From an uncultured Gammaproteobacteria bacterium (GTDB lineage: Bacteria > Patescibacteriota > Patescibacteriia > SBBC01 > CAIJZX01): DNA of 64,000 nt. The notes under the pieces are model-generated. The model was not told the origin of the DNA, made no database searches, and saw only the letters and a list, made by a program, of their open reading frames with translations. The position numbers and the translations under genes were made by a program. Every line of letters begins with the position of its first letter. Position 1 is the stretch's first letter. This document shows positions 10,305 to 10,486 of this stretch, piece after piece. Where the stretch lies: the NCBI GenBank assembly GCA_964383765.1, contig CAYLHT010000001.1, positions 100,998 to 164,997 on the forward strand. The letters are read 5' to 3'.

Positions 10305-10486
10305 GCCCCTGTAGCTCAACGGATAGACCTGCCCGCCATTGCCTGAGCCCCCATAGTTCAATTGGATAGAACGGCCCCGTCCTAAGGGGCAAAACTTGGT
10401 TCGAATCCAGGTGGGGGCACTGGCGAAGGCAGGCGGGGCAATCCCGTCCTAAGGGAGAGATAGAGGTTCAATTCCTTTCAGGGGCA
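10305..10486 (+). other. tRNA-Arg(CCU)-like host gene interrupted in the D stem by a 110-nt insert that carries another tRNA
   Basis: 10305-10327 plus 10438-10486 join into a 72-nt cloverleaf: acceptor GCCCCTG/CAGGGGC 7/7 bp, D stem GCTC/GA|GC, anticodon loop GTCCTAA, T arm AGAGG-TTCAATT-CCTTT. The insert is 10328-10437. Confidence 0.6.
10347..10419 (+). tRNA. tRNA-Arg (anticodon CCT)
   Basis: GCCCCCA-TA-GTTC-AATTGGATA-GAAC-G-GCCCC-GTCCTAA-GGGGC-AAAA-CTTGG-TTCGAAT-CCAGG-TGGGGGC-A. Complete cloverleaf, folded by hand. Confidence 0.9.

Follow-up and report, generated by a model that had tools for sequence, protein, structure and literature searches.

We examined a 64-kb stretch of contig CAYLHT010000001.1 (the window, 64,000 nucleotides in full), in which a complete tRNA-Arg(CCU) gene lies inside a second tRNA-Arg(CCU) gene at 10305-10486. 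The whole arrangement is called a nest here, the outer gene its host or shell, and the insert a cassette, composed of an inner tRNA gene and two arms that pair into a stalk. The Arg nest has the following parts:

10305-10327, + strand: 5' fragment of the outer tRNA-Arg(CCU), nt 1-23 (GCCCCTGTAGCTCAACGGATAGA), with the acceptor 5' strand, D-stem 5' strand, D loop, G22 and A23
10328-10346, + strand: 5' arm of the cassette stalk, CCTGCCCGCCATTGCC, followed by the linker TGA (together CCTGCCCGCCATTGCCTGA), paired with 10420-10437 in the minimum free energy (MFE) fold
10347-10419, + strand: inner tRNA-Arg(CCU), complete, 73 nt, no encoded CCA (ARAGORN and Rfam)
10420-10437, + strand: cassette stalk 3' arm (CTGGCGAAGGCAGGCGGG), paired with the 5' arm in the MFE fold
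10438-10486, + strand: 3' fragment of the outer tRNA-Arg(CCU), nt 24-72 plus discriminator (GCAATCCCGTCCTAAGGGAGAGATAGAGGTTCAATTCCTTTCAGGGGCA), with D-stem G24/C25, anticodon arm, T arm and acceptor 3' strand

The window has a G+C content of about 53%, and the nearest named relatives of its IF-2 in BLASTP searches are Candidatus Kerfeldbacteria and other Patescibacteria; by this evidence, the organism is a Kerfeldbacteria-like Patescibacterium, a bacterium of the Candidate Phyla Radiation (CPR). Our view of its genome is limited to the window, of whose open reading frames (ORFs) 56 were scanned for enzymes. Inner and outer tRNAs were called with ARAGORN and with Rfam model RF00005 (gathering score 29 bits). 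Syntenic loci of relatives were obtained via homologues of IF-2 and of a CsoR-like repressor, and via a metagenome scan anchored on the neighbouring tRNA-Ala(GGC). They come from NCBI metagenome-assembled genomes (MAGs) and from Logan, ENA and JGI assemblies of different samples, and bear L numbers here (L001 is SRR12313480 and L002 is Logan SRR22388055). Loci L028-L033, found via the CsoR-like protein, are partly informative, their contigs beginning within the Ala nest described below or having no Ala nest.

Architecture and history of the tRNA-Arg nest

On the intact locus, ARAGORN calls the inner tRNA-Arg(cct) only, at 10347-10420. The inner gene (10347-10419) scores 57.7 bits over model positions 1-71 of RF00005 and forms a full cloverleaf, indicating that it is a bona fide tRNA gene; presumably, it is the working copy. 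When 10328-10437 are deleted, the remaining 72-nt join is likewise called as tRNA-Arg(cct); its acceptor stem has 7 bp, its D stem is GCTC/GAGC and its T loop TTCAATT. Together, the two calls bear out an earlier sequence-only reading of the locus, which had described a complete tRNA-Arg(CCU) within the halves of another that join into a canonical cloverleaf with anticodon CCT. Deletion and rescanning with ARAGORN across the locus recovered the Arg host but was otherwise noisy, and it missed the degenerate Ala shell described below. Neither Arg gene of the window encodes CCA, the inner one being followed by CTG and the outer one by CCG. Both have the anticodon loop GUCCUAA (10379-10385 and 10447-10453), so that position 32, usually a pyrimidine in tRNAs, is a purine (G). 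The identity of this loop in the two genes had been noted before and holds, but the loop is not special to the pair, since every tRNA-Arg(CCU) of the clade shares it.

Of the 110 nt of the insert, 73 are tRNA and 37 are not. In the MFE fold, 10328-10345 pair with 10420-10437 over 18 positions with 3 mismatches. The sequence-only reading was right that the ends of the insert form a helix, but it had the register wrong, because pairing begins at the very ends (C10328:G10437). The stalk helix stacks on the inner acceptor stem, with the inner cloverleaf at the helix tip (z = -3.9; 0 of 200 shuffles fold as well). It is also significant in a flank-helix test, in which the acceptor-extending pairing of tRNA flanks was scored against shuffles for 45 tRNAs of ten loci (p = 0/200 for Arg). 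The helix can be extended into both host fragments, to 23 positions with 17 Watson-Crick and 2 GU pairs, because the insert sits on the dyad of a native quasi-palindrome, GGATAGA|GCAATCC.

Orthologous loci, whose comparison had been proposed along with the original description, contain the gene in uninterrupted form. One tRNA-Arg(CCU) with no insert lies at the same syntenic position in each of L008, L009, L005 and L003, those of L008 and L009 being of the outer sequence type and those of L005 and L003 nearer the inner type. In BLAST alignments, 10305-10327 are 100% identical to nt 1-23 of the un-nested L009 gene and 10438-10488 are 96% identical to nt 24-74 of the un-nested L008 gene, and the two aligned fragments meet at 23|24 with neither gap nor overlap. 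Compared with the L008 gene, the spliced host has 3 differences in 72 positions (69/72 identical), and its first 42 nt match the L009 gene. Judged by these alignments, the host with the insert removed is a canonical tRNA, orthologous to a working gene. Specifically, when the junctions ...GGATAGA|CC... and ...GG|GCAATCC... are closed up, the native GGATAGAGCAATCC results, without gain or loss of a base. Between inner and outer gene, 23 alignment columns differ, and between the inner gene and each of the un-nested Arg genes recovered at least 13 do; the inner gene is therefore not a local copy of its host. The acceptor stems of L003 and L009 are mosaic, combining GCCCCTG with TGGGGGC and so containing two wobble pairs. 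Nests could resolve to plain genes by deletion between short direct repeats common to the ends of shell and inner gene, which would fit these mosaic stems.

The same Arg nest is present in L002, which represents a different sample, assembly and species, with 172 of 182 positions identical and 10 different. The IF-2 of L002 is about 80% identical to that of the window (79% by BLASTP, 83% by alignment), four-fold degenerate sites are 38-47% identical, which amounts to saturation, and the spacer just 3' of the nest is unalignable. Within the nest, the differences number 1 in the 73 nt of the inner gene (72/73 identical), 2 in the 37 nt of the stalk arms and 7-8 in the 72 nt of the host halves (~90% identical). 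The 5' arm with its linker (10328-10346) is identical at 18 of 19 nt, and GGCGAAGGCAGGCGGGGC of the 3' arm at 18 of 18. The 3' arm together with its host junction, GGCGAAGGCAGGCGGGGCAA, also occurs unchanged (20/20) in L018, within debris 3' of a working tRNA-Arg. Thus, cassette arms are shared by three genomes whose neutral sites are saturated (window, L002 and L018). Pairing alone would not keep a sequence identical across such divergence, and the Ala stalks described below show how far stalks can change over long divergence. The economical reading of these alignments is that the Arg cassette was recently acquired or passed between lineages, and so is young or horizontally shared, and that the host halves look conserved because the host was a working tRNA until shortly before the insertion.

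The outer gene of L002 is damaged. In its acceptor 5' strand TG has become A, so that two acceptor pairs are lost, C56 is deleted (TTCAATT to TTAATT), there are further changes, and ARAGORN calls nothing in the joined host halves. The CCA of the host has been mutated independently in both nest carriers, to CCG in the window and to CTA in L002, and is kept in all five complete un-nested Arg genes (5/5). Selection does not maintain the outer gene in every carrier, as the broken L002 shell and the double loss of CCA show, and these changes point to relaxed selection on the host rather than to a spliced or two-piece functional host. The intact host stems had been taken as an argument against simple decay; that is true of the window, but the L002 shell has decayed, and a recent insertion better explains why the outer Arg stems are intact in the window.

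The same evidence bears on a different view of the locus, that of a two-in-one gene in which stalk and inner tRNA act as an intron or as an intervening sequence (IVS) of the rRNA kind, the host halves are ligated (e.g. by RtcB) or form a non-covalent two-piece tRNA-Arg, and both tRNAs are used. Such a gene would account for the intact host halves of the window, which form a canonical cloverleaf, and for their ~90% identity to those of L002 despite saturated neutral sites. Moreover, the stalk on the inner acceptor stem makes about two helical turns, which suits RNase III, and Patescibacteria often have introns and rRNA insertions (PMC13011429). However, the L002 host is broken, host CCA is lost in both carriers and kept in every un-nested orthologue, and the Ala, Val, Lys and Leu shells described below are plainly degenerate. 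The insert does not resemble an intron either. C10328 and G10437 pair at the foot of a continuous helix with no junction bulges, which excludes a bulge-helix-bulge (BHB) motif, and no group I or group II ribozyme core was seen in an Rfam E-value scan of 9500-11500, whose only matches were tRNA and chance tRNA-like ones. Inserting a helix at 23/24 would also disrupt the tRNA core, which includes the 9-12-23 triple of the established tertiary structure. We therefore regard a two-in-one gene as unlikely, and on the same grounds we set aside two suggestions of the sequence-only reading, a non-canonical intron and a processing stalk that releases guest and host together.

A further observation concerns the sequence of the Arg stalk. 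The tRNA debris of L009 holds a 20-nt perfect palindrome, CCTGCCTGCCGGCAGGCAGG (14138-14157), with a variant, CCTGCCTGCCGACAGGCAGG, in L017. Its arms each differ by one base from the outer 10 bp of the Arg stalk of the window (CCTGCCCGCC / GGCAGGCGGG), and the window has no copy of it. By its sequence it may be an 'empty' version of the Arg stalk, a lead only.

Nests of other isoacceptors and neighbouring features

Beyond what had been noticed at the Arg locus, the pattern is systemic: a second nest lies 300 nt downstream, a related case involves tRNA-Pro, and many more are found in relatives. The second nest, of tRNA-Ala(CGC), and a hairpin related to its stalk comprise these features:

10717-10745, + strand: outer tRNA-Ala(CGC)-type shell, 5' fragment; first 18 nt intact, D-stem 3' strand and anticodon arm unrecognisable
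10746-10763, + strand: 5' arm of the Ala cassette stalk, TCCAGCCCCACTTC, followed by the linker TGAA; forms a perfect inverted repeat of 14 bp with 10840-10853
10764-10839, + strand: inner tRNA-Ala(CGC), complete, with encoded CCA (ARAGORN; Rfam 68.6 bits)
10840-10853, + strand: Ala cassette stalk 3' arm (GAAGTGGGGCTGGA), beginning directly after CCA
10854-10886, + strand: outer tRNA-Ala shell, 3' fragment, with variable loop, T arm and acceptor 3' strand with U70, ending AACCA
42362-42391, + strand: 'empty' hairpin TCCAGCCCCAGTCA-CC-TGACTGGGGCTGGA, whose outer 10 bp are the outer 10 bp of the Ala stalk; upstream of a tRNA-Cys/Gly pair

The Ala nest folds with z = -5.95. In BLAST alignments with the un-nested tRNA-Ala(CGC) of L009, 10717-10734 are 100% identical to nt 1-18 and the 33 nt of 10854-10886 are 91% identical to nt 44-76; the middle of the window shell is scrambled. 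Exact TCCAGCCCCA sites occur in the window only in the Ala cassette stalk and in the empty hairpin at 42362.

L001 carries an Ala nest identical to that of the window. tRNA-Ala(CGC) is also nested in L003, L008, L017, L028 and L034, with a different stalk sequence in each. In a four-genome alignment of Ala stalks, all 13 pairs (13/13) have changed on both sides and 94% of cells are still paired; by this comparison, the stalk keeps its pairing as its sequence changes. L008 has a triple-layer nest, whose shells have no recognisable acceptor 3' end. The inner Ala gene of the window differs by 1 nt from the un-nested gene of L005, and its type is un-nested in both L005 and L029. In L028, by contrast, this type is itself the outer shell around a newer tRNA, indicating that the layers record a succession and not a fixed design.

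Nests recurring in NCBI MAGs and in Logan, ENA and JGI assemblies of different samples speak against an assembly chimera or a collapsed repeat, as do the identical Ala nest of L001 and the Arg nest of L002, which is independent and has substitutions of its own. What could be said for such an artefact is that the short-read contigs L002, L028, L029 and L034 end inside tRNA-Ala genes. These breaks are presumably caused by the near-identical tRNA segments that nests repeat, and nests would consequently be under-represented in MAGs. We give an artefact virtually no credence.

In the window, L003, L017 and L034, the outer Ala shells have kept their acceptor stem and an AGGGG/CCCCT T stem, with a compensatory change at 6:67 (U-A versus A-U), while their anticodon and D regions are scrambled. 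This selective retention, together with the strictly kept pairing of the Ala stalk, would suit a scaffold, in which the acceptor/T-arm 'top half' of the outer gene and the stalk guide the folding, end-processing or regulation of the inner tRNA. We find this quite unlikely, because the same tRNAs function without a shell in L005, L009, L029 and L008 and because the inner tRNA already has all determinants for RNase P and RNase Z. The retained parts also vary, some shells having 45-nt T-loop insertions (L003 and L028) and those of L008 lacking the acceptor 3' end.

The tRNA-Pro case lies on the other strand and involves a working gene and a relic:

30750-30843, - strand: tRNA-Pro(UGG) at 30759-30832 with an 8-bp acceptor-extending inverted repeat, GTGCCCGC (30843-30836) and GCGGGCAT (30757-30750); flank-helix p = 0.03
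30590-30652, - strand: relic 3' portion of an older tRNA-Pro, about nt 22-76 with CCA, ~110 nt downstream of the working tRNA-Pro

The relic is 95% identical to nt 21-64 of tRNA-Pro (BLAST) and gives a partial Rfam tRNA match of 29.1 bits. Between the working and the relic gene lies a hairpin-rich spacer of 112 nt (30638-30749, - strand) with no Rfam match, which ends ...GCCCTGGAA and so resembles a D-loop element of L003 pseudo-tRNAs (...GCCCAGGAA) described below.

Besides Ala(CGC), nests or relics of Val, Lys, Leu and Ala(UGC) genes are found in relatives. Shells of the Ala, Val, Lys and Leu nests are degenerate, for example through a missing D stem, 45-90-nt insertions in D and T loops, or loss of the anticodon arm. 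Across the ten loci, a significant acceptor-extending flank helix accompanies 13 of the 45 tRNAs and none of the others. Debris of the same anticodon lies within 300 nt of 11 of the 13 with a helix and of 5 of the 32 without (Fisher p = 2.5e-5); the 2 helix-bearing exceptions also show decayed shells (by eye only). This association suggests that stalks mark replacement copies of tRNA genes. Most cassettes have a 5' arm with a terminal TGG or GG that pairs with the CCA or CC of the tRNA, so that the stalk directly continues the acceptor stem with the discriminator bulged out.

Several other structured insertions were found in tRNA-like sequences of the lineage. A structured element of 75-90 nt (GGGCAGAAGCGACC...GAGTTGCCAGTGGCAAGTCG...TGCCCAGGAA), which matches no Rfam family, follows G19 of the D loop in different pseudo-tRNAs; it is seen at 17899-17987 and 18250-18323 of L003 (96% identical) and in part at 13755-13786 and 15040-15072 of L009, where it sits within a duplicated T loop of tRNA-Val. 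A two-hairpin element of about 45 nt is inserted in the T loop (after ~nt 58) of outer Ala shells at 3146-3197 of L003 and 83-131 of L028; the copies are 90% identical, their hosts are different tRNA types, and a related form lies at 14158-14224 of L009. A 35-nt hairpin, CCGCGTAAAGCGGCGTG(R)CCGCCACGCGG(Y)TCTAC, occurs twice in L017, once in an Ala shell after the D stem and once in the anticodon stem of an Arg shell (863-897 and 1281-1315), and from this distribution it behaves like a tiny miniature inverted-repeat transposable element (MITE). Evidently, tRNA loops of this lineage attract structured insertions; as long as a gene is needed, an insertion in it could persist only by bringing a replacement tRNA. 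Two pairs of perfect inverted repeats spaced by about 70 nt (47618/47702 and 55724/55806) were rejected as cassettes, as they lie inside coding regions and enclose nothing tRNA-like.

Displaced 3' portions of tRNAs also occur tens of nt downstream of working genes at 626-670 of L017, ~203-311 of L018 and 15014-15035 of L009 (all - strand). They begin in the anticodon or T loop and look like integrase scars, but almost nothing lies between the copies. Fragments of this kind (window Pro, L017 Ala, L018 Arg, L009 Val) would fit a purely local origin with no mobile unit, by tandem duplication followed by deletions or by template switching at quasi-palindromes of the tRNA itself, with a nested look arising by chance and the stalks being added later by palindrome-perfecting mutation; perfect stalks with wholly different sequences fit arm-to-arm templated mutation as well. 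We nevertheless consider a local origin very improbable. The Arg host reconstitutes to the base at 23|24, which two independent deletions would not achieve; the inner and outer Arg genes, with their 23 differing columns, are neither of them a recent copy of the other; and three genomes whose divergence is saturated have cassette arms that are identical.

The nests are surrounded by other tRNA and protein genes. The ordinary, un-nested neighbour between them, which served as anchor for related loci, has no flanking stalk:

10523-10598, + strand: tRNA-Ala(GGC), stalk p = 0.9

Genes neighbouring the nest encode IF-2, a DAGK-like kinase, a bactofilin, the CsoR-like repressor, thioredoxin, thioredoxin reductase (TrxB) and glutamate dehydrogenase. 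A homologue search with the DAGK-like protein gave one Neolewinella locus, irrelevant to the nest. Between tRNA-Ala(GGC) and the Ala nest, a 16-nt palindrome, TGTTCC(A/T)CG(T/C)GGAACA, occurs three times (10629-10644, 10661-10676 and 10693-10708), with half-sites also at 10282-10298. Every relative compared (L003, L005, L008, L009, L017 and L029) keeps 2-4 copies at the equivalent place, and the palindrome looks like a putative operator for a regulator of the tRNA operon. The motif TTTTACGAC(AC), at ~10270-10282 of the window, lies 10-35 nt 5' of tRNA-Arg in all relatives (L003, L005, L009 and L017), with a second copy directly 3' of tRNA-Ala(CGC) in L005 and L009; from its position it is possibly a promoter or processing signal of the operon. 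Just 5' of the tRNA operon, a 48-aa ORF with one hydrophobic helix (10119-10265, + strand) is kept in L002, L003, L005, L008 and L009; a homologue search with it gave no matches, the protein being too short for the word index. The palindrome ATATACCCCCGGGGGGTATAT (~10899-10919), 5' of the CsoR-like, thioredoxin and TrxB genes, is kept in all relatives and is probably the operator of the CsoR-like repressor. In one relative only, a gene whose product has the '23S rRNA intervening-sequence protein' fold (PF05635; L029 2563-2910) lies between thioredoxin and TrxB. Elsewhere in the window, a perfect palindrome of 21+21 nt, without spacer (ACCCAGTCCCAGTTTTTGTTA / TAACAAAAACTGGGACTGGGT; 40889-40930), directly follows an ORF that ends at 40879, and is unusually long for a terminator.

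How the nests may have arisen

Probably, a stalk-flanked tRNA cassette inserts into or beside a gene for which it can substitute, and decay of the outer gene follows. Comparison of the loci shows, at the level of their sequences, the precise insertion of an arm-tRNA-arm unit, un-nested orthologues, a shared unit in diverged genomes, decay of the host and recurrence; which copy functions, which enzymes process it and by which route cassettes insert and spread, we infer. Among the suggestions of the sequence-only reading, an inverted-repeat element with a tRNA cargo fits best, given the uninterrupted hosts, the precise insertion and the arms in three genomes. It was also said to have targeted its own isoacceptor, which may be survivorship: cassettes would be seen in genes of the same isoacceptor because only those can be disrupted without killing the cell.

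Under this explanation, the cassette would have arrived as one unit at the DNA level, with the dyad of the quasi-palindrome GGATAGA|GCAATCC as its landing site. The operon transcript would pass through the whole nest, the inner tRNA would fold alone at the tip of the stalk, and the stalk would isolate the inner fold from the homologous shell. Ordinary tRNA end-processing could then release the inner tRNA, with RNase P cutting at G10347 and an endonuclease after A10419, followed by CCA addition; RNase III may cut the stalk first. The outer pieces would be the disabled former gene, intact in the window since the insertion is young. Spread between related genomes would probably be by recombination, with the conserved outer halves as homology arms. 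Repeated rounds would overwrite tRNA genes from inside and leave one to three concentric pseudo-tRNA shells, which may later decay, gain small hairpin insertions or be deleted. Templated arm-to-arm mutation at quasi-palindromes would give perfect stalks with unrelated sequences. A candidate source of the stalk is fold-back or template-switch extension of the acceptor-stem palindrome, and a candidate source of insertion sites is SbcCD-type cleavage at palindrome apexes.

Several observations tell against replacement by cassettes. The outer Arg gene of the window retains every conserved tRNA feature and so may still have a function. The Ala shells of several genomes look conserved beyond expectation, so that either all nests are young or the acceptor and T-arm parts are constrained. 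The stalk arms of different cassettes share no sequence, which makes a classical end-recognising transposase unlikely, and a scan of 56 ORFs of the 64-kb window found neither a transposase, an integrase or a reverse transcriptase nor RtcB or a splicing endonuclease (EndA). The Arg arm has one copy in the window and the Ala arm two (cassette and empty hairpin), and no free-standing donor copy of the cassette was recovered. A viral sequence collection gave no matches to the Ala(GGC) anchor, the double Arg anticodon loop, the Arg stalk arm, the inner tRNA-Arg or the D-loop element, and a phage origin is unsupported.

As to known kinds of mobile unit, the Arg cassette does have terminal inverted repeats, its arms (10328-10345 and 10420-10437) pairing from the very ends. 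A transposon with target-site duplication was rejected, because no base is repeated at the junctions, different cassettes share no ends and there are 1-2 copies per 64 kb. An integrase scar was rejected for the Arg nest, which has no direct repeat of the attachment-site (att) type and no duplicated host base. More speculatively, the cassettes could be an unrecognised selfish or 'self-replacing' unit of CPR genomes, which would insert at the hairpin apexes of tRNA genes in a structure-directed manner and without target-site duplication, spread across species and drive tRNA turnover; we hold this as a possibility with the odds against it. A bolder variant would have some shells, those that keep the acceptor stem, T arm and CCA, be functional two-piece RNAs.

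If replacement by cassettes is correct, tRNA genes in these reduced genomes are repeatedly overwritten from within and are not static single-copy housekeeping loci, and the process would be a mode of tRNA gene turnover and horizontal exchange that is undescribed as far as our literature search shows. Standard pipelines report the inner gene only, so that the shells and their history are invisible. The nest offers a defined substrate for studying the processing of a tRNA buried in another tRNA-like fold. It is also a test case for the insertion of hairpin DNA at hairpin apexes without target duplication, and for why stable-RNA genes of CPR bacteria attract insertions.

Comparison with known systems

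A full-text literature search found nothing on tRNA genes nested in tRNA genes, in agreement with the sequence-only reading, which knew of no described bacterial case; the nearest paper, on group I introns of Patescibacteria tRNAs, does not mention them. Nesting of tRNA in tRNA thus appears to be undescribed and general in this lineage. The group I introns of Patescibacteria tRNAs come from the same phylum and, like the cassette, hide a tRNA gene from standard annotation. However, they are self-splicing and lie in the anticodon loop (e.g. at 35/36), whereas the nest insert lies in the D stem and has no ribozyme core, and nothing at the nest suggests splicing.

Archaeal BHB introns, such as the tRNA-Trp intron that holds a C/D-box small RNA, and split or permuted tRNAs are comparable in having a structured insert outside the anticodon loop that carries a functional RNA. 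In Thermoproteales, movement of introns between tRNA genes has reportedly been proposed. The nest, in contrast, is bacterial and has no bulge-helix-bulge, its exons are not maintained, and its cargo is a tRNA of the same specificity.

Integrative elements (phages and islands) that target tRNA genes and replace the part that they displace share with the cassettes the tRNA landing site, an insert that supplies what it destroys, and displaced tRNA scars, as seen in relatives and at the tRNA-Pro of the window. The nest insert differs from them in its size of 110 nt, in having no genes and in carrying a whole tRNA instead of a 3' segment; it also lies inside the old gene, with no att repeat and no integrase seen in the window.

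MITEs and REPINs, which are non-autonomous inverted-repeat or hairpin elements, are likewise small and noncoding, with inverted-repeat ends that fold into a long hairpin and a cargo in the loop, and the empty hairpin that shares the arms of the Ala cassette adds to the likeness. REPINs are moved by RAYT transposases. The cassettes differ from both in having no target-site duplication, unconserved arms, 1-2 copies in the window rather than tens, and a functional tRNA as cargo, and neither a transposase nor a RAYT was found among the window ORFs scanned.

The IVSs of bacterial rRNA and the rRNA insertions of CPR bacteria resemble the cassettes in being extended stem-loops at or near a helix apex of a stable-RNA gene, in their patchy distribution and in their unexplained origin. 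An rRNA IVS is excised by RNase III without re-ligation. The host of the nest, by comparison, is a tRNA, which hardly tolerates a break at 23/24, its stem-loop holds a tRNA, and the host appears to die instead of working in pieces. The origin of the stem-loop IVSs of bacterial rRNA has long been unexplained, and the same process may be at work in them.

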